Below are positions 3,923 through 56,411 of a DNA stretch of 64,000 nucleotides, piece after piece. Numbering within the stretch: the stretch's first letter is position 1; every line of letters starts with the position of its first letter. Location of the stretch: positions 21,597 through 85,596 of the IMG/VR virus record IMGVR_UViG_3300013286_000009, one strand, 5' to 3'. The notes beneath the pieces are model-generated. The model was not told where the DNA came from, did no database searches, and saw only the letters and a program-made list of their open reading frames with translations. The stretch is from a virus. The translations under genes were made by a program, and so were the position numbers.

Positions 3923-4540
3923 TTAGAAAAAATTAAAGGATAGGCTTACTCTAAGATCGTCTTCATCTTCTGTAAGATTAGATTCAACATAGTGTGCTAA
4001 ATGCCCGGGAAATAATAATAACATTCCTTCTTTGGGTTTAAATGAATATTGTGTCCATAGTCTGCTGTTATTAATATCTTTTCCTTGCTTTTCTAATTGT
4101 TGGCTAATGAAATTCATGCGGTCTACTTCTATTACCGATCTAGTAAACACGATGTTGCCGCTATTAGCCGGTACCTTAAGATAATAAACACCGCTTAGAA
4201 AAGCATTATGATGAGTGTGTTCTCTGTTGTATGTATGGCGTGGATTGGCATTATACCAGTATGCAACAGTATCCATTTCTGAAGGTAATTCCCATGCAGA
4301 TTTTATACGTTTAGCAGACGGAATTATATAATTTTGAAATAATCGATCAGTTGCCCAGTTATCGTAATTAGGAGAATACATCGCCGGAGATTGCCAACCT
4401 CCTAAATTGCTCTTTTGCACACTAGGAGTAGTTGGTATTAATTGTTTTATGGCATCAAGAATAGGCGGATTGATCACCGGATCTAAATAAGTACTAAAAC
4501 AAGATGATACAAACAATAAATTTTCTTTTAGCTCTGCCAT
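3923..4540 (-). CDS. 2OG-Fe(II) oxygenase, TIGR02466-like (HxH type)
   Basis: KSNLGGWQS, NREHTHHNAFLSGVYY, FPGHLAHYVE...RVSLSFN. Confidence 0.88.
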   Translation of the reverse strand: MAELKENLLFVSSCFSTYLDPVINPPILDAIKQLIPTTPSVQKSNLGGWQSPAMYSPNYDNWATDRLFQNYIIPSAKRIKSAWELPSEMDTVAYWYNANPRHTYNREHTHHNAFLSGVYYLKVPANSGNIVFTRSVIEVDRMNFISQQLEKQGKDINNSRLWTQYSFKPKEGMLLLFPGHLAHYVESNLTEDEDDLRVSLSFNFF

Positions 4541-4545
4541 GTAGA

Positions 4546-4553
4546 TATTTATA
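4546..4553 (-). promoter_or_regulatory. T4-type late promoter TATAAATA
   Basis: Exact TATAAATA 5 nt upstream of ATG 4540. It overlaps a plus-strand TATAAATG (4550-4557) that faces gene 4580. Confidence 0.7.
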
Positions 4554-4579
4554 AATGCACATTTAACACGGAATCATTC

Positions 4580-6049
4580 ATGAAACAACTTAAAAAACTA
4601 TCAGTGATAGGGGGCGGAACAGCTGGATTTGTTGCCGCTTTAATTCTTAAACAAAGATTTCCACTTATGGAAATTGAATTAGTTAGATCTAAAAAGATAG
4701 GTATTATAGGTGTCGGTGAAGGTAGTACTGAACACTGGAATGAATTCCTCACATATATTGGAGTTAAATGGCAAGCTGTTATTCAGCACTGCGATGCTAC
4801 GTTTAAATGCGGTATTATGTTTCGTGGGTGGGCAGATGAGGACTATATGCATAGCATCGGGCCAGAAAATGATGTTAAGAATGGACAATATCCTACCATC
4901 TATGGCAAATACATAGCAGAAGGTGCTGCCAACAGATTCTTTAATCCTAATTTAACGTGGGATAACAAGCTATACGCAAACTTTTTAAAGCCTGAGACAT
5001 CTTCTCCCTACAATCAATATCATTTTAATACTCAAAAATTGAATGATTTCCTTACCATGATTGCCATACACAAAGGCATAACAGTTACCGATGATGAAAT
5101 AGTCGATATTATCCTTAACGAACAAGGCGAAATAGAAGAGCTTGTTGGAGAAACAAGCTCTTATAAATCTGATTTTTACATAGATAGTACCGGTTTTAAA
5201 AGATTATTGATATCTAAACTAGGAGCAAAGTGGTGCAGTTATAGCCAGTATCTTAAAATGAAAGCCGCTATTGTATTTCCTATAGGGGATACAGAAGAAT
5301 ACAATATATGGACCACAGCACAAGCTATGGATTACGGTTGGATGTTTAAAATTCCAGTATGGGGACGTAGTGGCAACGGGTATATTTTTGATAGTGATTA
5401 TATTACTGCGGAACAGGCGCAAGAAGAAGTTGAAAAATTCCTCGGACATAAGATAGAAGTAGGTAAACATTTGACATTTGATCCGGGTGCCTTAGATAAC
5501 GTATGGATTAAAAATTGTTGCGCTGTTGGACTTAGTTCTAGTTTTGTAGAACCATTAGAAGCTACGAGTATTGGAACTAGTATACAACAAGTTTTTAAAT
5601 TAATGCATCGTATTCCAAATTATAACGAAGATACTATAGAAGAATATAATAAAGATATTAGTGATATGTTAACTAACATCAGAGATTTTGTTATTTTGCA
5701 TTATGTTACAAACAAATCAAATACACAATTTTGGAAAGATGTAGCTAATATTAAATTGCCAGACGAATTAGAACGTAATATTAAAAAATGGCGTAAAAAT
5801 TTACCCATAGCAGAAGATTTTCAAGGCAAGTCTGCTTATATTTTATTTAGAGATGCTCATTACTTACAAGTATTAGCTGGATTAAAATTGTTTGACCAGC
5901 AAAGCATACGTGCTGAATACGACATGATGAATCCAGCTGTTAAAAAAATAGCAGAAGATTTTATTAGAGAGACTAAAACTGCTGAAAAACGTGATCCAGT
6001 TATAGGTCACAAAGAATTTATTACAAAATTACGTAATACAAAATACTAA
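4580..6049 (+). CDS. Flavin-dependent halogenase family protein 2
   Basis: GGGTAG, GVGEGS, DATFKCGI, GWMFKIP (variant of WxWxIP), FVEPLEATSI. Confidence 0.92.
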   Translation: MKQLKKLSVIGGGTAGFVAALILKQRFPLMEIELVRSKKIGIIGVGEGSTEHWNEFLTYIGVKWQAVIQHCDATFKCGIMFRGWADEDYMHSIGPENDVKNGQYPTIYGKYIAEGAANRFFNPNLTWDNKLYANFLKPETSSPYNQYHFNTQKLNDFLTMIAIHKGITVTDDEIVDIILNEQGEIEELVGETSSYKSDFYIDSTGFKRLLISKLGAKWCSYSQYLKMKAAIVFPIGDTEEYNIWTTAQAMDYGWMFKIPVWGRSGNGYIFDSDYITAEQAQEEVEKFLGHKIEVGKHLTFDPGALDNVWIKNCCAVGLSSSFVEPLEATSIGTSIQQVFKLMHRIPNYNEDTIEEYNKDISDMLTNIRDFVILHYVTNKSNTQFWKDVANIKLPDELERNIKKWRKNLPIAEDFQGKSAYILFRDAHYLQVLAGLKLFDQQSIRAEYDMMNPAVKKIAEDFIRETKTAEKRDPVIGHKEFITKLRNTKY

Positions 6050-6631
6050 TCAGCTGAAATTCATTGCTATTGATATGCGGGGAGTAATATTCTTCCCAGG
6101 TTCTACCATGTGTCTAAGCCAGGATCTGAATATTAAAAGTTTTGCAGGTTCTGGAGCATAAGATATACGGGTAAAGCTAAGTGTATTTTTCTTTTTAATT
6201 TTCTTAAGGCCAAACATATCAGGTTCTAGTGGGCTTTCAAATATGATACGCCCGGCATTTTCTGGAGCAGCCATATAAAAAACTGCACTAAAAATAGACC
6301 CGTTATGTGTATGAAATTCTTGCCAACCCTTGTCATCAGATATGTTTAACCAAGCAGAATCATTTTTATATGTTCCTTCGCAATTATGTAACGATGCGAA
6401 TTCATTAACATGATCTGTAATTAAATCTAACAACGGTTTAAATACCGGATCGTTAGTTAAATCATGAGTACCGTGTGTATTATATGTACCACCTAACCAT
6501 TCTGCTCCTCCAGTTGGAGTTTTATCTTTGATGATAAAAGAATGTTCTATAAGGTTTGCATTTTCTTCTGCGGATATAAGATTTTCTTCTACATAAATGC
6601 ATGTAGGAAACCACATTTCAACTTTGCCCAT
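6050..6631 (-). CDS. 2OG-Fe(II) oxygenase, TIGR02466-like
   Basis: QEFHTHNGSIFSAVFY, FRSWLRHMVE...RISIAMN. Confidence 0.88.
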   Translation of the reverse strand: MGKVEMWFPTCIYVEENLISAEENANLIEHSFIIKDKTPTGGAEWLGGTYNTHGTHDLTNDPVFKPLLDLITDHVNEFASLHNCEGTYKNDSAWLNISDDKGWQEFHTHNGSIFSAVFYMAAPENAGRIIFESPLEPDMFGLKKIKKKNTLSFTRISYAPEPAKLLIFRSWLRHMVEPGKNITPRISIAMNFS

Positions 6632-20000: not shown

Positions 20001-23000
20001 CCACCAAACGCAATGGATGACAATGAAGTCACACCCGATGCACCACCTGCATTCCAAGTTTTTCCGTCTGTACTGTAAGCAGTGGTAGTACTACCATTGG
20101 CAATAGCTACATAACGATTAACTCCGTAAGCAACAGCTTGCCAAGTTGCACTTCCTATAGTTCTTGCTGTACTGCTGAATCCTGGGCCAGTATATGAAAC
20201 TGCTGGCTCAATAATGTATGTAGTAGTTGAATCCATTGAAGTTTGGATTGCAGTTCCTGGAACAATATGATCCCAACTTGCGGCATATAGCGACACTGAT
20301 TGACTAGTAGTAGTTGTAATAGCTGAAGTAAATGCCACGCCGCCTGATGTGTCCGTTACTGAGAATGTGGTCGTGTTGACAACAGTTTTAACATAATAAA
20401 CAATATTTGTTAATAATCCGCCAACCGCAGACGCTACATAGAATGGCATGTTGGCATATAATGTTGCTGTACTTGCAACTGTAACAGTTGAAGGTGTACC
20501 GTTTGTTGTTGCTGTAATAGTCAACGTAGCAAATGATGGTCTGATAATTTGGGCAATTTTACTGCCGTTAGTATATGAATAAATTGTTGCATATTGACCT
20601 ACACCAGTTCCAGCAGTTATCTGAATTTTCATTCCAACATAAGCGCCAGTTAGTGCTAAATCAGTAGCCGCAATAGTTATAAATCCAACTGTTGATCCAG
20701 CAGTAACAGCTTGTGCAGTACTAGTCGCAGTTACATAACTACTACCTCCCACACCTTGGCCATTATTCAAGTCAGTTAATCTTGTTTCGGTAACTGCGGC
20801 ATCTCTAAATTCATCATGTGTTGCAGTTGCATTGTATCCACTACCGCTGATACCTGCTACGCTGTTTGAATAAGATGAACCAGCGTTTCCATATTCAAAT
20901 CTCAATACTTGATTCAGAACATCGGTGACTACGTTAGTAATTTGTGCGCCGTTGGCACGATTGTTTAATGTTCCGTAAATAGGAGTTTCGTATGTATCAA
21001 CACCTTCTGCTACAACACCATATGTACCATATGAACTGTTGCCGTTGGTTGCACGAATACGTGCTCCTAGTTCTGCTAGGTATCCTGCATAGCCGTAGTA
21101 ATTAAACACTGAAACTAGTTCTGATAAAGCGCCGGATCCAGTGACCCAGAAGCCAATACCGTCACCAATAATTGTTGTATAATCGTTGGCAACCATTGAT
21201 TTATTGCCACCGTTGTGCAATGCCGCATCCACTTTAGCGCCAGAACATGCATAGCCAAACATGGTATTATTTTGAACATAGCACGAACGTGCATAGATCC
21301 AACTGTTAGCATCGTTAGGGCCAAAGCCTGGATCAAGTGCCGCATAAGCACCAGCAGTTGGACGTTTGGTTCCAAAGCTGTTTACTACACTTAGATATCC
21401 GGTTAATCCGTTCATAGTGGTATTACGTATACCTGAACTATTACGCACTTGGAACATGTTAGATGTGATTGAGCCGCCAGTAACCGCATTAACATATAAT
21501 TGGGCCGAACGTAATGATTTATAATTTCCCGGGAAATTTAAATCGTAAATCATAGCTGTTATATAAGCATTTGTATCGCGTAAACACTTAGCCAATGAAT
21601 AGTAATAAGATATAATCATCGAGCCAGCGCCGTTAATAACTTGGAATGGAGTTGTGCTTGATGCAGTGGTAGTCAATACCAGGGTAGTACTGCTAGGAAC
21701 TGCAAGTACATAGTAAGTTGTTGTCAGTGCAAGATTTCCATATACTCCGCCAGCAACGCCTGTCATACTGCCCGATCCAATACCTAACGTAATTGCAGTG
21801 CCGCCGTATGTACTACTTAAAGTAATTGTACTTGCGCCTGAATTTACGTTGATGATATAGTATGGACTTCCTGAGTTAATTTGATTTCCAGTACCAGTTC
21901 CAATAGGAGTTCCTGTAAACGTAACAATCATACCAGTTACTAAATTAGTAGTGCTATTTACAGTGACCACACCGCTTGCGGCTGTTGCTGTTGCAGTCGG
22001 TGTTGCTGTAACTGCACTGATAATTTGTACAGGATCGCCTATGGATAAATTATGAGCCGCACTGGTTGTTTGGTAATTATTCTGGCCAGTCACCGATGTT
22101 GATGCAACAGTTTGATTGGCGTTGACTGTAAACACTGTAGCACTGGTTGTTGCAACAATATAAGTTCCAGCAGTGACGCCTGTTCCGCTAAGAACTGTTC
22201 CAATTTGGAAAGTTCCTGTTACAGAGCCACCAGCGGTGAATGTATAACCTGAGATTGTGCCTGCGCTTGCACTGGCACTGGCATTGGTTGTTGAAGTTAT
22301 AGTTCCACTAAAATTAGCAGTGGTATAAGCACTGGCTTCGTATGCTAGAAAGTTTGCATTAGCACGTAAAATTTCTGCACCTTGAATAGTAGCCAAGGTA
22401 TTATTATAAGTTAATGTGCCGTGAACTTCAGGAGTTGTTCCAATTCCGTTAGTTAGGATATTAATAAACAATGCCATACTAGAGCTTGCATTGGCAGCGG
22501 CTGTACTATTTCCTGCTAGTGTAGTAGCTATTTGACTTGTCAAATAATTGAATGCCGCAATAGTTGCTGATTTTTGTATGCCAACCACTCTGCTAGCCTG
22601 TGCTTGATAGTAACTCATTCCAGCTTTTACTGTTTGATAATTACTTCCAAGTATTGAATCGTACCCTACGCTATCAATTAGTAATCCAATGTCTCTATAG
22701 CAAATAGTTTGTAAGTATGATAAGTTTGGAAAGTTAGTAGAAATATAATTAATAACACCTGCTTGCAAACTTGCACGAGCCGCACTTAATACAGCCTGAC
22801 CCGATTGTAGTGTAGTACTGGCTTGACTATAAGCAGGCAAACTAGAAACTTCAGCAGATATGGTTAAACCTGAACCGCTGACAAACGTTGTTATTACAGA
22901 TCCGTTAAAACTATTGGATAATTGGAATTGTGTGCTAGTTAAGCCTGTACTTGAAACAAAATAAGCAACATTAGATCCAGTGATTGTAGTACTTGATACA

Positions 23001-43194: not shown

Positions 43195-44976
43195 TTAAGC
43201 GTTATCAATTGTAACAGTTGTGCTTGCTACAGCTGATCCTGTTGTCCATAATGCTGTTGCACCGTTAGAAAACTGGAAACTAGAACCTACGTTTTGTTGT
43301 AATGTTACTTTGTTTTTTGTTAGTTTAGTAACAAAATATGTATTACCAGCAGAGTCAGTGGCACCAATAGTCATAAACCCAGCTGTTAATGGAGTTGTTG
43401 ATGTTAATAAACAAACATCAATGCCGTCTGGTGTTTCAACTTTGTATCTACGTGAACCTTTTTGTGCAACAATATCTGATTCGCTGTATTCTTTTGAGCC
43501 TGTTGGCAAGAATGCTGATACAATGATAGATGGGCCAAAGTTTCCTGTACTACCATAAGTACCTTGTGTACCGCTAGCAGTTGTTAGAACAGCAGTAAGT
43601 GTACCTGAACTACCTGTTAAACCACTAGCTGATATTACCAAATATTGGCTACCAACACCAGTTGTGCTGGCAATTGGACCTGCATCTGTTGTGATGCCTA
43701 CCGCTGTGCTAGTAAAGACGTTTGCATAGGTTGAAGCAATAGAAATCTGCTTAGTTGCTGAGTTAACTGCAATAATATAATATGTACCAGCTGTTACACC
43801 AGATGAACCACCTGTACCAGTCGTTACAAATTTCTGACCTTGCGCTACTAGACCGTTTACGCTTGACAATGTCAATGTACCAGCTGTAGTAAATGTTAAA
43901 CCAGTTGTTGTACCAGCCGAAGTTACTTGAGCAGTTGTTGGTAAACCAGTTGCGGCAGTTAATGCCACTAGGGTAATTGTGCTAGTACCGTTAGTTGCTG
44001 AAACAATATAGTTGTTACCTGTTGTGTAGCCTGTCCAAGTTGTGCCGCCAATAGTACCTGTTACAGCAATGACCTGTCCTACCCAGAATGTACCAGCAGA
44101 TTGTGCTGTGCTGAATGAGAAGTTACCTGTTGTACCACTTGTTACTGTACCAAGTGTTAGACCAGCACCAGCTGTTGCGGCTGTGATTGGTAGTGCCGCT
44201 GTGCTAGTTGTTACATAGCCATCGCCTGCGGCAGTAATGGTTGCGCTAGTTAAACTCCATTGTGCTACAGCAATAGTGTGACCTGCACCACTTGATGGAA
44301 CTGTTGTTGCTAGTGCTGTTGTGTTTACAGTTGTGCTTGTACCGCTTAGGTATACTGCTGATGTAACTGTACCAGCTACTGTACCAATAGTAACTGCACC
44401 GTTTGAAATTGCAGTTGAACCACCAGTAAATGTAATTGCTGTACCAGCAATAGCAAGAGCATAAGTTGCGGCCAATGTTACTGTAGTTGAGCTTGAAGTT
44501 GAAGCGGCAACATAGTATGTTGTGTTAGCGGTCAACCCTGTAGTTGTTGTAACTGTACCGCCAGTGATAAAGCTAGCACCTTGAATGTAGCTACCACTTG
44601 TAACTGTAACGGCTGTACCGTTAGTGTTGGTAATTGTGTTACCAGCGATAGTGCTCAATGTTGGTGTAAATTTAATACCTGTTGTTGCTTGTGTTAAGAT
44701 ATCAGTTGCTAGATAAGCTACTGTAGCTGTACCAGCTACTGTGATCTGAGCCGCTGTTGGTGTATATAGTGGTGTACCAGTTGCGCGAACTGCACCTAAT
44801 GCTGAACCTAGCGGTACTGAAAATAGTAATGTACCAGTACCAGCTGTAATAGCACCAGCTGTACCAGTAGCACTTGCTACTGATTGGCCGCCAAGGCCTG
44901 CATCACCTGTGGTTAATAAACCTGTGGAACCTAAATTAAGGTTACCAAAAAATCTTTTTGCTAAAGGACGTCCCAT
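43195..44976 (-). CDS. Virion structural protein (possible head decoration/fibre), Thr/Gly/Ala-rich
   Basis: MGRPLAKRFFG N-terminus and IVAQKGSRRYKV...YFVTKLT C-terminus. Directly downstream of the capsid gene with its own promoter and a strong SD. Confidence 0.7.
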   Translation of the reverse strand: MGRPLAKRFFGNLNLGSTGLLTTGDAGLGGQSVASATGTAGAITAGTGTLLFSVPLGSALGAVRATGTPLYTPTAAQITVAGTATVAYLATDILTQATTGIKFTPTLSTIAGNTITNTNGTAVTVTSGSYIQGASFITGGTVTTTTGLTANTTYYVAASTSSSTTVTLAATYALAIAGTAITFTGGSTAISNGAVTIGTVAGTVTSAVYLSGTSTTVNTTALATTVPSSGAGHTIAVAQWSLTSATITAAGDGYVTTSTAALPITAATAGAGLTLGTVTSGTTGNFSFSTAQSAGTFWVGQVIAVTGTIGGTTWTGYTTGNNYIVSATNGTSTITLVALTAATGLPTTAQVTSAGTTTGLTFTTAGTLTLSSVNGLVAQGQKFVTTGTGGSSGVTAGTYYIIAVNSATKQISIASTYANVFTSTAVGITTDAGPIASTTGVGSQYLVISASGLTGSSGTLTAVLTTASGTQGTYGSTGNFGPSIIVSAFLPTGSKEYSESDIVAQKGSRRYKVETPDGIDVCLLTSTTPLTAGFMTIGATDSAGNTYFVTKLTKNKVTLQQNVGSSFQFSNGATALWTTGSAVASTTVTIDNA

Positions 44977-44998
44977 TTTATTTTCTCCTTAAGAAATA

Positions 44999-45060
44999 AC
45001 GGCGTTCTAGGCCGTACGCGGTTGGATATCCGCATAAAATCCACACCATGTGGATCGTAC
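44999..45060 (-). ncRNA. Candidate three-hairpin 5' leader RNA
   Basis: AUCCACA-UGG-UGUGGAU, GCGG-N8-CCGC and ACGGC-N7-GCCGU lie between the CTAAATA promoter and the AAGGAG SD. Confidence 0.5.
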
Positions 45061-45064
45061 TAAG

Positions 45065-45071
45065 TATTTAG
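45065..45071 (-). promoter_or_regulatory. Late promoter (CTAAATA)
   Basis: TAAATA core just after the capsid-gene terminator. Confidence 0.6.
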
Positions 45072-45080
45072 CTGGAAATG

Positions 45081-45105
45081 AAAAAGGGCTCCGAAGAGCC
45101 CTTTT
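45081..45105 (-). terminator. Rho-independent terminator after the major capsid gene
   Basis: AAAAGGGCTC-TTCG-GAGCCCTTTTT with a UUCG loop and U-tract. Confidence 0.9.
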
Positions 45106-45131
45106 ATATTGCTTGCAATATAAATTTCAGA

Positions 45132-54135: not shown

Positions 54136-54356
54136 CTAGATTATCTAACGAAGAAATCGAACAATACCTAGTTAGGCTAGATCAACACGTAAAGAGATTC
54201 AAAACAGAATTATACAGAATCGCATGGTACATGCGGGGTGGTGTCAATGTTAATGATTTGTTTGATCGCTACAGTACAGACGATATAGAAATTATTACAG
54301 GTATAATTAACGAAAATATCGAAGCTACTAAAAAATCACAAATGCCGTTAATTTAA
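54117..54356 (+). CDS. Putative -1 frameshift extension of the gp26-like gene
   Basis: Slippery T_TTT_TTC at 54117-54123. The -1 frame stays open for 77 codons (RDSLTRLSNEEIEQYL...IAWYMRGG...KKSQMPLI) to TAA 54354-54356, with no ATG until 54231. Confidence 0.7.
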   Translation, partial: FFRDSLTRLSNEEIEQYLVRLDQHVKRFKTELYRIAWYMRGGVNVNDLFDRYSTDDIEIITGIINENIEATKKSQMPLI

Positions 54357-55210
54357 TAATTTTGGCCGTTGTGATTGTAGTCAAACCCTGTTTTGATTTC
54401 AGGGCCATTTACCCTAGCTCCTGCTCGCATCTTAGCACGTTCTTTGTCTATGTCAAACGGCATTGACACGCTGGGTATATCATCTATACGTTGCTTAGTA
54501 TCAGGGTCAGGTGAAATATCTGCACCTGTTTTGTCTTTGATCCATCCTGTAAATGCATCAATGCCCCAATTGCCAGCCCAGCCTATACCATTTATAATCA
54601 ATTCTGGTATAAAACTTCTTAACCATTCTTCACCGTCTTTGGTATTCAACCACATGGCAAACAATGCCCAGCCTGCTGTGGCAGCAATAGTAGAAATCAC
54701 TATAGCGGCTCCGCCTGCTTTGCCACCTAGATTTCTTGCCAGTGTTTGTAGAATTTCTTTGAATAGTGTACCAAGCACACCATTGACTGCACCTTTCATA
54801 AGCGGCACAGCAAGTATGCTGATAATACAAACACCAGTGATACCATTTCTAGCACCGATGATGTATTGATCAGTATATTTGTACTGACCGTTTTCGTCTT
54901 TCTCTTTGGCCAACTCATTAAGAGCCTGCATCTTTTTGTACCACATGTAGATGGGACCAGCGATGCCTGCTACTTTAAGCAATCTAGTAAGCGTGACTCC
55001 CCATTTGGTATTCAATATACCTTCTACTTCTGCGGCATTAGCTCTGCGTTGGGCAAACCAACCTAATTTAGTATCTTGTTCAGGAGTCCATGCATTTTGC
55101 ATGGCAGAAGGATTGCGTCGAAACGCTTCTCTTAGCGTTTCCATGATTTGATCGTGGCTTAAATTACGAGGATCGAAATCAGATTCATTTATAATGTCTA
55201 GAACTTTCAT
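54353..55210 (-). CDS. Hypothetical protein with hydrophobic segments (possible internal/ejection protein)
   Basis: 285 aa, MKVLDIINE N-terminus, several hydrophobic Gly/Ala-rich helices, late promoter GTAAATA at 55217-55223. Confidence 0.65.
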   Translation of the reverse strand: MKVLDIINESDFDPRNLSHDQIMETLREAFRRNPSAMQNAWTPEQDTKLGWFAQRRANAAEVEGILNTKWGVTLTRLLKVAGIAGPIYMWYKKMQALNELAKEKDENGQYKYTDQYIIGARNGITGVCIISILAVPLMKGAVNGVLGTLFKEILQTLARNLGGKAGGAAIVISTIAATAGWALFAMWLNTKDGEEWLRSFIPELIINGIGWAGNWGIDAFTGWIKDKTGADISPDPDTKQRIDDIPSVSMPFDIDKERAKMRAGARVNGPEIKTGFDYNHNGQNY

Positions 55211-55231
55211 ATGTTATATTTACCTATGTCA

Positions 55232-55680
55232 AGATGAACTTGCGTTCATCTGTTCTTCGCTATCGCTCGAACTTTTATCTAATATAAACTATAGTTAAGT
55301 GCGAAGCACTTTAAATATTATCTAGATTGTTCAGTCACACTTAGCCCTGGCGGGCTAAAAATGAACATTATCTGAGTTGAACAGTTCACTTAACGTTACA
55401 GCATTACAGTGGCGGTTGTCCGGTACCACGAGCTGAGTCTTATACAACGGCGGGCCTCTACGCATACGTTAACATACGCAAATCCGTGGGTATTTCTCCC
55501 TCTTTTAGCCTTGGAAAATTGTCTTTTTACTAGTCAAACGGGTTTACATTTATGTAAGGCATATCCCATCATCGTCCTGTAAAGGATAGTGATCTAGCTA
55601 CTCTACGCCAATTAGAGTTCCTTGCCGCCACACATCAGAGCGGATTCAGGGCACATTTTTATCGCCGGTGCGGGCTTATT
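55232..55680 (-). ncRNA. Large structured non-coding element (candidate ncRNA and/or replication origin)
   Basis: About 470 nt without a long ORF, containing at least eight stem-loops and a long-range 7-bp pairing (55409-55415 with 55625-55631). Confidence 0.6.
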
Positions 55681-55685
55681 TGGCT

Positions 55686-56129
55686 TTATTTTGCCTGGTT
55701 TTCTTGAAGTTTGCGAATATGTGAACCGTGTACACGCACTTGAATATGACCGTTATAATAGTCATTTGATTCTAATACCCTGCGTGAAAACTGTTCTCTA
55801 GCCTCTATATAACTACATTCTGCTTTGCTAGAACAGTAGTAGAGTATCTCTCTTGTAAAATTTTCTGTACCTAACTGCATAACATCCTCGGTCAGTGCTG
55901 GACTAGAACCATAATAGTCCCGCCAATCGCTGTCAATTTTGCTACGGATTCGTTTCTTTTTCTTTGTGCCGTTTTTTAATTTTACTGTCTTGTATGTGGT
56001 TTTGGAGAATTTAGCTAGTTTTTTGCCTATATACATGCGGCCAGAAATTGTATTTGTTATAAGATATACAAAGCCAATACAGTCTTCTGGTAATGTTTCG
56101 ATTATTTGTGATTGATAAGTCCAAGACAT
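55686..56129 (-). CDS. GIY-YIG family nuclease-like protein (single domain)
   Basis: GFVYLITN...MYIGKK, DWRDYYGSS, REIL...E...Q...YYN, with a basic KKKKRIR insert. Confidence 0.8.
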   Translation of the reverse strand: MSWTYQSQIIETLPEDCIGFVYLITNTISGRMYIGKKLAKFSKTTYKTVKLKNGTKKKKRIRSKIDSDWRDYYGSSPALTEDVMQLGTENFTREILYYCSSKAECSYIEAREQFSRRVLESNDYYNGHIQVRVHGSHIRKLQENQAK

Positions 56130-56141
56130 AAACTATGTAGT

Positions 56142-56411
56142 TTATTCTGTCTCGTCCTCCCCGCCCTTTTGGTTTGCCTTGCGCTGTGCCTTTGTTTGAT
56201 CTAAGTGTGTGCGATATTGTTGTACTCTTGCTCTACGTTCCCGGGCAATAATACGAATCTGCGCTAGCCAGTAGCGCATTTCCTCACCCGCCCGCCGTGT
56301 GCCTCGGTTAATCCATTTTTGATTTGCCTTGAAATATGCCTGAAACGCCTGCATGAGTTGATCATGCGTTTCCTCATCTTGATAAGGAGTTGGTTCAACG
56401 TGCTTTGACAT
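56142..56411 (-). CDS. Small basic helical protein, possibly Hc1-like nucleoid-binding
   Basis: ANQKWINRGTRRAG..MR..L..I...ARERR pattern resembles the histone H1-like Hc1 N-terminal family. Confidence 0.45.
   Translation of the reverse strand: MSKHVEPTPYQDEETHDQLMQAFQAYFKANQKWINRGTRRAGEEMRYWLAQIRIIARERRARVQQYRTHLDQTKAQRKANQKGGEDETE

Follow-up and report, generated by a model that had tools for sequence, protein, structure and literature searches.

The largest gap free of open reading frames (ORFs) in a 64,000-nt stretch of viral DNA (hereafter the window; positions 21,597–85,596 of the 85.6-kb virus record IMGVR_UViG_3300013286_000009, estimated to be 23% complete) almost certainly encodes a real structured RNA, a full-length form of the Polynucleobacter-1 RNA. 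The gap begins at the stop codon of a 147-aa GIY-YIG nuclease gene. It spans 55211–55685 and was the largest at ORF thresholds of 60, 80, and 100 aa, in agreement with a preliminary description made from the sequence. Giant T4-like freshwater phages and Polynucleobacter genomic islands both carry this RNA. We regard it as probable, with real room for doubt, that the gap yields a discrete, minus-strand, trans-acting scaffold RNA that carries twin boxes and has the GIY-YIG gene as a syntenic neighbor.

RNA identity, structure, and twin boxes

The whole window was scanned against Rfam 15 using cmscan, and the gap was scanned at E-values up to 5. RF01718 (Polynucleobacter-1) matched with 53.9 bits, above the gathering score of 37, over model positions 1–141 of 141, with E-values of 1e-8 (window scan) and 9.7e-11 (gap alone). 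The match places the RNA in this family, and relatives score 62–122 bits; cmscan flags several non-standard pairs in the window's own copy. The remaining ~300 nt of the RNA matched no Rfam family above cut-off at E-values up to 5. The preliminary description had proposed an undescribed nuclease–RNA module and had named a match to a known family as grounds for giving up the proposal; the 5′ third is such a family, and the novelty holds for the remaining ~300 nt.

In Table 1 of Weinberg et al. 2010 (Genome Biol 11:R31, PMC2864571), the Polynucleobacter-1 row carries 'y' for RNA, 'y' for cis-regulatory, and '?' for switch, and the taxa are given as 'Burkholderiales, fresh water/estuary'. The catalogued motif covers only about the first third of the RNA, and a literature search, with the supplements of PMC2864571 outside its scope, found no paper on the RNA extension, the boxes, the island module described below, DUF6641, or a tyrosine recombinase guided by RNA. 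The reading of RF01718 is corrected here: rather than a small RNA standing alone or a leader at the 5′ end, it is the head of a mobile-element RNA of ~450–570 nt. The features of the RNA in the window are as follows.

about 55232–55676, minus strand: full-length twin-box Polynucleobacter-1 RNA, ~445 nt, ends inferred from conservation
55527–55676, minus strand: domain 1, the RF01718 Polynucleobacter-1 RNA, 150 nt, 5′ third
55488–55500, minus strand: hairpin H-a (GGGA...(A)CCC), 4 pairs, all with both-side changes, 87.5–93.8% paired
55453–55485, minus strand: long hairpin H-b, 11 of 11 pairs with both-side changes, 96.1% paired
55466–55472 with 55390–55396, minus strand: pseudoknot PK-2, H-b loop UUAACGU with ACGUUAA, 7 of 7 pairs with both-side changes, 99.0% paired
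55399–55448, minus strand: pseudoknotted core, H-c interleaved with H-d and H-e
55444–55448 with 55415–55419, minus strand: H-c, 98.4% paired
55432–55435 with 55399–55402, minus strand: H-d, 98.0% paired
55426–55429 with 55409–55412, minus strand: H-e, 93.7–100% paired
55367–55378, minus strand: twin box 1, base x (55378), ACUC, and the word AGAUAAU (55373–55367)
55340–55359, minus strand: hairpin between the boxes (GCCC-GCCA-GGGC plus extension), 96.2% and 80.1% paired, mostly invariant or with one-side changes
55317–55328, minus strand: twin box 2, base x (55328), AUCU, and the same word AGAUAAU (55323–55317)
55298–55310, minus strand: terminal hairpin 1 (UUCG loop)
55252–55272, minus strand: terminal hairpin 2
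55232–55251, minus strand: terminal hairpin 3 (GCAA loop), read by eye, outside the formal count of pairs

Covariation was evaluated in an alignment of 88 representatives below 93% identity built with MAFFT (alignment A1; the 89th, L192, was omitted, its stretch being only 334 nt long). Mutual information revealed standard-pair covariation along the whole RNA, with the highest values at 55435/55399 (1.41) and 55434/55400 (1.18), and PK-2 was represented by the pairs 55472/55390, 55467/55395, and 55466/55396. In domain 1, the RF01718 helices P1, outer stem, and P6 gave mutual-information pairs with 84–100% standard pairing; because the MAFFT alignment was shifted in P2/P3 for the window's subgroup, this domain was left out of the formal count. 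That count comprised 65 pairs in the ~300 nt beyond the RF01718 domain and was compared with 500 shuffles. Paired cells amounted to 94.8% vs. 82.1 ± 0.3% in the shuffles (0/500 as high), compensatory cells numbered 707 vs. 173.5 ± 18.5, and changes on both sides were found in 40/65 pairs, while controls in which the pairs were slid along the alignment were 35–42% paired. The terminal hairpin helices within the count showed both-side changes in 9/11 pairs, with the third hairpin left outside because loop-length indels shift the MAFFT columns. G-U pairs were abundant on the minus strand (for example, GU in 30, 22, and 31 sequences and UG in 62 and 61), and their frequency therefore points to an RNA made from that strand.

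These covariation data bear out the large, ornate structure that the preliminary description had seen, although not all of its details. Its stems at 55600–55618, 55488–55500, and 55461–55480 are real, being P3 of RF01718, H-a, and the core of H-b, respectively, and the three G-U pairs that it had noted in the last of these form on the minus strand only (55476/63, 55479/60, and 55481/58). The interrupted stem at 55324–55373 corresponds to the RNAalifold stem around the GCCC/GGGC hairpin, and the GCGGGC repeats (GCCCGC on the minus strand) recur at about 55350, 55450, and 55670, as described. The long-range GTGGCGG/CCGCCAC pair (55409–55415 with 55625–55631) was not upheld: it was 54.3% paired, equal to the shuffled mean of 54.3% (266/500 shuffles as high; n = 88), and CCAC at 55409–55412 instead pairs locally with GUGG at 55426–55429, where it covaries (AU 54, UA 32). 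The hairpin at 55544–55557 is an insertion found in only 2/88 aligned sequences.

The core ends in two similar tandem modules, each of which closes with a box consisting of A, three pyrimidines, and a seven-letter word. Two bases vary between A and G, namely the one preceding the box (x) and the one that opens the word (y). In A1, y was identical between the two boxes in 87/88 sequences and x in 82/88, and all four x/y combinations were present (44, 17, 11, and 9 sequences). On a FastTree phylogeny, x changed 20 times in box 1, 17 times in box 2, and 20 times as a joint state, and the corresponding numbers for y were 21, 22, and 22. Since the joint state changes no more often than the single sites and all x/y combinations occur, sites 50 nt apart are coupled more tightly than sites 5 nt apart, which argues against mere linkage or shared descent. 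Across 111 candidate pairs from phages, the words were identical in both boxes and fell into eight kinds (AGAUAAU 63, GGAUAAU 36, and six rarer kinds); a further 22 of the 133 pairs retrieved by regular expression, which may or may not lie in the RNA, had unrelated, non-identical words. The words in the bacterial hosts were AGCG, GGAG, AGAG, AUCA, AACA, ACAU, and ACUU; the two boxes agreed in 15/17 and 7/10 loci, and elsewhere they differed by one or two letters. Both boxes have three pyrimidines (CUC and UCU) ahead of the word, and one G-rich complement could pair with either box. To judge from these patterns, the two boxes behave like a specificity code kept in step between copies.

Several known classes of RNA were considered for the gap and rejected. 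The sole other match in the gap was a sub-threshold one to manA RNA (RF01745) at 55292–55357 (E 0.17); its 15.2 bits against a gathering score of 55.2 and 121 deleted model positions do not allow membership. For tRNA and tmRNA, ARAGORN found 0 genes in the window, Rfam gave no tRNA match, and a search of 20 related loci found none. Intron_gpI did not match the gap at E-values up to 5, and the GIY-YIG ORF lies 5′ of the RNA rather than embedded in an intron inside a host gene, so a group I intron was set aside. HEARO, GOLLD, ROOL, and OLE gave no cmscan match in the window or the gap.

Occurrence in phages and in bacterial genomic islands

Relatives of the 147-aa GIY-YIG protein were found on at least 584 viral contigs, of which 80 loci were kept. 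Gap-like DNA lay directly behind the GIY-YIG gene in 58/80 loci (blastn), RF01718 followed it at 62–122 bits in 13 of the 20 loci scanned with cmscan (two with an extra ORF between), and nhmmer with profiles derived from A1 detected domain 2 in 72/80 loci and domain 1 in 60/80. Starting from the gene, the RNA was present behind it in 73 of 77 evaluable loci. Three loci ended no more than 172 nt past the gene and were not evaluable, and the four loci with no RNA match extended at least 2.5 kb downstream and kept an intact GIY-YIG gene (77–85% identity). Starting from the RNA, a search with a 25-nt core block yielded at least 119 stretches and 78 new loci; among the matches listed, the GIY-YIG gene lay upstream on the same strand in 72/72 evaluable loci, with 329–420 nt between its end and box 2. 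In the other six loci, the core block was less than 400 nt from the locus edge, and the RNA-first and GIY-first sets share contigs. The linkage between RNA and nuclease gene that had been predicted was thus found in phages from both directions, with variable flanks. Related contigs reached 128–210 kb at 35–60% completeness, and one complete relative is 346,856 bp long with terminal repeats; these sizes therefore indicate giant T4-like phages.

Exceptions to the usual arrangement were of two kinds. ORFs of 238–341 aa were inserted between the GIY-YIG gene and the RNA in L020 (3426–4451), L029 (3372–4274), L061 (3434–4267), and L062 (3436–4152), and also in L067; neither these nor the ORFs that follow the GIY-YIG gene where the RNA is absent had a Pfam match. 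In 13 phage loci, the core was present and domain 1 was undetected (L023, L024, L041, L042, L047, L058, L059, L061, L062, L063, L067, L073, and L076). Nine of these (L024, L041, L042, L047, L058, L059, L063, L073, and L076) have ~200 nt between the GIY-YIG stop codon and the core, and L061, L062, and L067 have the extra ORF in that interval, which suggests a divergent or replaced 5′ domain in the 13 loci.

The 147-aa protein matched PF19835 (SegE_GIY-YIG) with 112 bits against a cut-off of 25, residues 3–129 aligning to positions 1–123 of the 123-position profile, and phrog_447 with 126.5 bits. The score lies above the profile cut-off across the catalytic domain, and as the whole profile spans residues 3–129, the protein has no extra domain; the preliminary description was right that a C-terminal DNA-binding domain is missing. 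Its 'basic insert' fared less well: a β-hairpin is predicted at residues 40–66 in the AlphaFold2 model (mean predicted local distance difference test score 82.5), but this segment falls inside the family profile. No relative with a solved structure was found by sequence below an E-value of 0.6. In a Foldseek search, the best fold match was the I-TevI catalytic domain 1LN0 (probability 0.95, with a weak E-value of 0.2), with template modeling scores of 0.59–0.61 when normalized by target length; homology to T4 endonuclease II had been considered, and the best match was I-TevI instead, itself weak.

The protein occurs once per record in 460 cultured phage records (tblastn), mostly Synechococcus and Prochlorococcus phages of the Kyanoviridae, together with Sinorhizobium phages and others; the homolog in OM43 phage Melnitz has 49% identity. 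In cultured phages, the gene is syntenic and lies near ribonucleotide reductase (nrd) genes, and in the marine cyanophages SynMITS9220M01 and S-H38 a small ORF and then tRNA genes come after it. The single copy per record and the synteny indicate a conserved gene at a stable-RNA slot, not a typical mobile homing endonuclease. A free-standing homing endonuclease of the T4 Seg type was likewise rejected for this protein, which consists of the catalytic domain only and occupies one syntenic place per record in the 460 records. Scans of nine cultured-phage GIY-YIG loci found neither RF01718 nor manA. Synechococcus phage S-H38 carries a wcaG RNA (RF01761, 95.6 bits; L205:4984–5078) 2 kb downstream of the GIY-YIG homolog, where it precedes a ferrochelatase gene.

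To find bacterial copies, species genomes were scanned for the pattern, and 18 of the resulting 120 stretches, picked by record title and contig size, went into cmscan. RF01718 was found at 46–104 bits in 10 of the 18 loci scanned, including Polynucleobacter isolate contigs of 0.3–2.15 Mb. The GIY-YIG gene was absent from eight of these ten loci, and the other two are short phage-like contigs in bins of metagenome-assembled genomes (MAGs). Behind the motif, the bacterial copies continue for ~330–430 nt that are homologous to the phage core and include both boxes and the terminal GAGCG...GCGAA hairpin, giving a host RNA of ~570 nt. These copies lie between divergent and downstream genes and end in a GC-rich hairpin. 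RF01718 was above cut-off, sometimes twice, in 13 of 121 genomes sampled within the genus to which the Polynucleobacter genome with locus L233 belongs.

All 11 host regions of 16 kb that were inspected (L328–L337 and L339) contained a DUF6641 gene, the RNA, and a 188-aa tyrosine recombinase, and no GIY-YIG gene; some of these regions may coincide with pattern-scan loci (L336 is L233). The DUF6641 gene is divergent, ~120 nt upstream of the RNA, and the recombinase is on the strand of the RNA, starting 341–1360 nt after box 2 (an example of the three-part module is L241:1017–3030). Of 17 shorter loci, 10 showed the same order, and some of the 17 stop short of the region needed to judge it. The matches of the 188-aa recombinase (PF00589) to XerA, XerD, and XerC are confined to their C-terminal catalytic halves, and the protein lacks the core-binding domain. 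PADLOC gave no defense-system match for DUF6641 or the recombinase. One Polynucleobacter chromosome carries two modules 18 kb apart (G006:C1:401229–401366 and 419563–419698) with the words AGCG and AGAG, and their proteins have diverged (51% vs. 95% identity to the reference for the recombinase and 53% vs. 99% for DUF6641). Neither the tyrosine recombinase nor DUF6641 was found in five large phage contigs or the complete 347-kb relative, in a search whose positive control for DUF6641 worked.

Host loci of 8–16 kb were searched for further occurrences of the word in DNA with flanks like those of the boxes, and nothing consistent emerged. Inverted repeats around the host RNA, tested as an invertible switch, had arms of 74–89% at inconsistent places.

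Further observations concern the islands themselves. In the whole genomes G007 and G006, there are four DUF6641 genes each, only one or two of which adjoin an RF01718 match; the remaining copies might flank diverged RNAs. A further conserved non-coding sequence of ~300 nt lies past the last hairpin of the RNA and precedes the recombinase gene (for example, L241, oriented 6105–6418) and holds a CGUGGC-GAAAAU-GCCACG hairpin, and other loci have a variable insert of 0.4–0.9 kb there. Arrays of 60–85-nt repeats lie to the left of the DUF6641 gene in L330 (oriented 4374–6579), L329, L336, and L337, each repeat consisting of a terminator-like hairpin and the reverse complement of a tRNA 3′ end, with no full tRNA detected by ARAGORN; the arrays look like a hot spot of repeated island integration. 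The MAG contigs L251 and L295 have a phage-like core with the words ACAU and ACUU, and in L251 the neighbors of this core are DUF6641, a Fic/DOC gene, and a pair of recombinase-like genes.

Neighboring genes and RNA ends

The genes around the gap are all on the minus strand and comprise a gp47-like gene, a gp46-like gene, a cytidylyltransferase-like gene, and the following.

56142–56411, minus strand: 89-aa ORF (p89), upstream of the 147-aa gene, which starts 12 nt after it
55686–56129, minus strand: 147-aa SegE-like GIY-YIG gene, the fixed upstream neighbor of the RNA in phages
55211–55685: ORF-free gap, 475 nt
55217–55223, minus strand: late-promoter-like box GTAAATA, past the last hairpin and 7–15 nt before the ATG of the next gene
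54353–55210, minus strand: 285-aa gene (p285), downstream of the RNA, ATG at 55210

Relatives of the 89-aa ORF were found in 36/80 loci of the GIY-first set. The 285-aa gene had no Pfam, PHROG, or NCBIfam match and is not conserved with the RNA, a relative being present in 1/80 loci (tblastn). The gene after the RNA has a short conserved N-terminus (MK-V/I-x-D-I-I) and otherwise varies in length (229–546 aa) and sequence; next comes, on the opposite strand, a gene for a gp26-like baseplate hub. In several related loci, the downstream genes are convergent. Elsewhere in the window, RF02980 (freshwater-2 RNA) has a full-length match at 44974–45055 on the minus strand (75.1 bits vs. a gathering score of 49.9), in a 155-nt ORF-free gap (44977–45131). 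No DNA similarity of the window to cultured phages was found.

The RNA starts ~10 nt after the GIY-YIG stop codon. At its other end, [AT]TAAATA occurred within 120 nt around the 3′ end in 90/107 distinct relatives, compared with 3% of random 120-nt windows. We take TATAAATA to be the T4 late promoter, and the GTAAATA box would place the RNA outside the late transcript of the next gene. A sigma-70-like site, TTGACA-17-TATGGT (10/12), lies inside the GIY-YIG ORF at 55908–55936 on the minus strand and could start a transcript over the 3′ part of the gene and the RNA; counts of such sites were no higher than in shuffles.

Candidate functions and comparison with known systems

We propose that the phage RNA may be made as the 3′ end of an early operon running from gp47 and gp46 to the GIY-YIG gene, or from a promoter inside that operon, and that it would end at the terminal hairpins, ahead of the late promoter of the next gene. 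It is not the leader of that gene's late transcript, because a late-promoter-like box is present in 90/107 relatives, the next gene itself is conserved in only 1/80 loci, and the downstream genes are sometimes convergent. The RNA would act in trans, as a scaffold presenting the same short single-stranded word twice to one reader that is encoded outside the RNA; most likely this reader is a nucleic acid, because CUC and UCU could both pair with a G-rich complement. The GIY-YIG gene would be a fixed syntenic neighbor at a slot for stable RNAs, occupied by tRNA arrays in marine relatives, and not an obligate partner. A possible role in the phage would be to compete with, or exploit, a host-island system that uses the same RNA.

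A number of observations weigh against this reading. The ends of the RNA are placed by conservation, and a consensus scan found no intrinsic terminator or promoter at them, the counts not exceeding those in shuffles. In metatranscriptomes, contigs of relatives covered domain 2 in three of four runs and also covered the GIY-YIG ORF; these contigs come from relatives at 85–97% likeness with small word shares of 0.04–0.10, cannot show a discrete RNA, give no ends, level, or strand, may include DNA carry-over, and prove nothing where a stretch is without cover. The window's own gap folds no better than shuffles (z = −0.82 for the minus strand and −1.03 for the plus strand), so the structural evidence is comparative and not thermodynamic. 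Since many of the aligned sequences are related, the shuffle controls overstate significance, to which the slid controls and the tree counts are a partial answer. As for a reader of the word, no complementary column was found in the host alignment (the maximum was 53% of sequences, with inconsistent results for the GGAG and AGAG words), no third covarying column was found in the phage alignment, and the complement of the word plus RRR occurs in the 64-kb window only on the boxes' own opposite strand. Finally, among the matches listed, the RNA in phages was never found without the GIY-YIG gene (72/72), and a functional tie is therefore conceivable.

This last point leads to the nuclease–RNA module favored in the preliminary description, in which the RNA would guide, activate, or prime a dedicated GIY-YIG nuclease. 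Strict adjacency on the same strand from both search directions, the constant spacing to box 2, the variable flanks, and a nuclease without a DNA-binding domain all suit such a module, and its premises of a real RNA and tight linkage in phages held. The separation of the two parts did not: the RNA stands without the gene in bacteria (8/10 loci and 11/11 regions), the gene stays intact without the RNA in four loci and in cultured relatives, an unrelated ORF of 238–341 aa separates the two in L020, L029, L061, L062, and L067, and the word covaries with nothing in the region. An RNA found without GIY-YIG in islands and a GIY-YIG found without RNA in phages indicate an element-borne RNA and do not support an RNA-guided nuclease. 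We rate a dedicated module as very improbable, and nothing was found for the variant of an initiator plus a primer RNA.

The RNA might instead act in cis, as a 3′ untranslated region that stabilizes, processes, or terminates the early operon, or as a leader gating read-through to the downstream structural gene. The start just past the GIY-YIG stop codon without a predicted promoter of its own, the closing hairpins just before the next gene, and the 'y' by which Weinberg et al. 2010 mark the motif as possibly cis-regulatory (Table 1, PMC2864571) agree with this. The size and pseudoknots of the RNA far exceed a terminator, however, and the host copies form a unit of their own between divergent and downstream genes, with a GC-rich hairpin at the end. 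The downstream genes differ or converge, the next gene has its own late-promoter-like box, and the coupling of the twin boxes has no partner in cis, all of which makes a cis-acting element unlikely.

Slightly less credence still is due to a cofactor role, in which the RNA would give nucleic-acid recognition to catalytic-only enzymes, namely the 188-aa recombinase in hosts and the GIY-YIG protein or a host recombinase in phages, with the twin boxes reading two DNA sites that share a core, like the two loops of an IS110 bridge RNA. The constant order of DUF6641, RNA, and recombinase (11/11 regions and 10/17 shorter loci) fits well, as do a recombinase without a core-binding domain and a phage GIY-YIG protein that is also a catalytic domain only. 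An identical variable word in both boxes is what two guides to shared-core sites would need, and one genome has two modules with the different words AGCG and AGAG. Yet no matching DNA sites were found in the 8–16-kb host loci, the complete 347-kb phage and five large contigs lack both the tyrosine recombinase and DUF6641, and the GIY-YIG family works without the RNA in hundreds of phages. An integrase beside an RNA gene is also common in island hot spots, and repeats of tRNA ends lie nearby; to our knowledge, small FimB/E-like recombinases need no RNA. The bolder form of the idea, that the twin-box RNA is a programmable recognition subunit directing the 188-aa Xer-like recombinase to two word-sharing DNA sites, must be called a long shot. 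If true, it would amount to an RNA-guided tyrosine recombinase, with phage copies carrying their own word beside a minimal GIY-YIG protein and using or subverting the mechanism.

Identical variable cores are also what paired tyrosine-recombinase sites require, and in hosts a recombinase adjoins; the conserved stretch might thus act as DNA, as a folded single-strand origin, a packaging signal, or two recombination sites with the words as crossover cores. This is very improbable in view of the frequent G-U (G-T) pairs on one strand only, pseudoknots with compensatory changes typical of RNA, and a 5′ third that is a curated RNA family. Moreover, the boxes are direct repeats that lie only 50–72 nt from each other and lack the inverted arms of a recombinase site, and the phages have no recombinase. 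The trans-acting scaffold RNA with a syntenic GIY-YIG neighbor is the reading that we retain. The RNA is abundant in freshwater giant phages, judging from a linked gene on at least 584 viral contigs, and is common to these phages and to genomic islands of their likely Polynucleobacter hosts. Twin boxes kept in step point to a reader of the word as a concrete target.

Large, multiply knotted bacterial RNAs are rare, and the solved ones are ribozymes, guides (HEARO is the omega-RNA of IscB), or self-assembling cages. GOLLD, ROOL, OLE, and HEARO/omega-RNA are pseudoknotted, conserved RNAs of several hundred nucleotides in phages or mobile elements, and HEARO stands beside a small nuclease gene. 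The RNA described here shares the size, pseudoknots, conservation, and mobile carriers of all of these and the small-nuclease neighbor of HEARO, but it had no cmscan match to them and has no IscB/TnpB-type protein and no tRNA neighbors in the window. A guided nuclease of the IscB/HEARO or TnpB omega-RNA type was rejected because the effector is a GIY-YIG protein, HEARO did not match, and RNA and protein occur apart.

A Seg-type GIY-YIG endonuclease adjoins the stable-RNA/tRNA region of T4-type phages, and the present locus resembles this in having a Seg-like GIY-YIG gene beside a stable RNA, with a tRNA array following the homolog in two marine relatives. It differs in that the RNA is not a tRNA according to ARAGORN and that the GIY-YIG gene is single-copy, syntenic, and without a DNA-binding domain. 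manA RNA (RF01745) is found in T4-like cyanophages, and here a hairpin followed by GUGACUGAA.AA.CU at 55292–55357 aligns to the start of its model, but the score is 15.2 vs. 55.2 bits and no manA RNA lies near the GIY-YIG homolog in nine cultured-phage loci.

In the P4 CI RNA (seqA/seqC) and P1/P7 c4 (a1b1/a2b2) systems, two direct repeats are served by one complementary reader. The twin boxes are similar in being two direct repeats with lineage-specific sequence in one mobile-element transcript; they differ in that no complementary reader is found in or near the RNA, which is about six times larger and heavily knotted. Both 'c4 antisense RNA' and 'c4-a1b1' stand in the same Table 1 (PMC2864571) as Polynucleobacter-1. 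With the IS110 bridge RNA or seekRNA (Durrant et al. 2024, PMC11208160; Hiraizumi et al. 2024, PMC11208158), the module shares a structured RNA beside a recombinase and two specificity segments with a short common core. The host enzyme here is a tyrosine (Xer-like) catalytic domain, whereas that of IS110 is DEDD, and the phage copy has no recombinase; an IS110-type bridge-RNA system was rejected on account of the PF00589 recombinase and the lack of word-matching DNA sites in the host loci.

The closest match to a catalogued entry remains RF01718, whose whole 141-position model is matched and whose taxa fit, with Polynucleobacter chromosomes and freshwater phage contigs here and 'Burkholderiales, fresh water/estuary' in the Table 1 row (PMC2864571). 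The present RNA differs from that entry in having ~300 nt more, with pseudoknots, twin boxes, and terminal hairpins, and in the place of its copies, which were found here mostly in giant T4-like phages, downstream of a GIY-YIG gene. By analogy, the RNA appears most like the other large, ornate RNAs of mobile elements, and the logic of its boxes would be closest to that of P4/P1 antisense immunity and IS110 bridge RNAs, classes to which it does not itself belong and in which one reader serves two identical sites.

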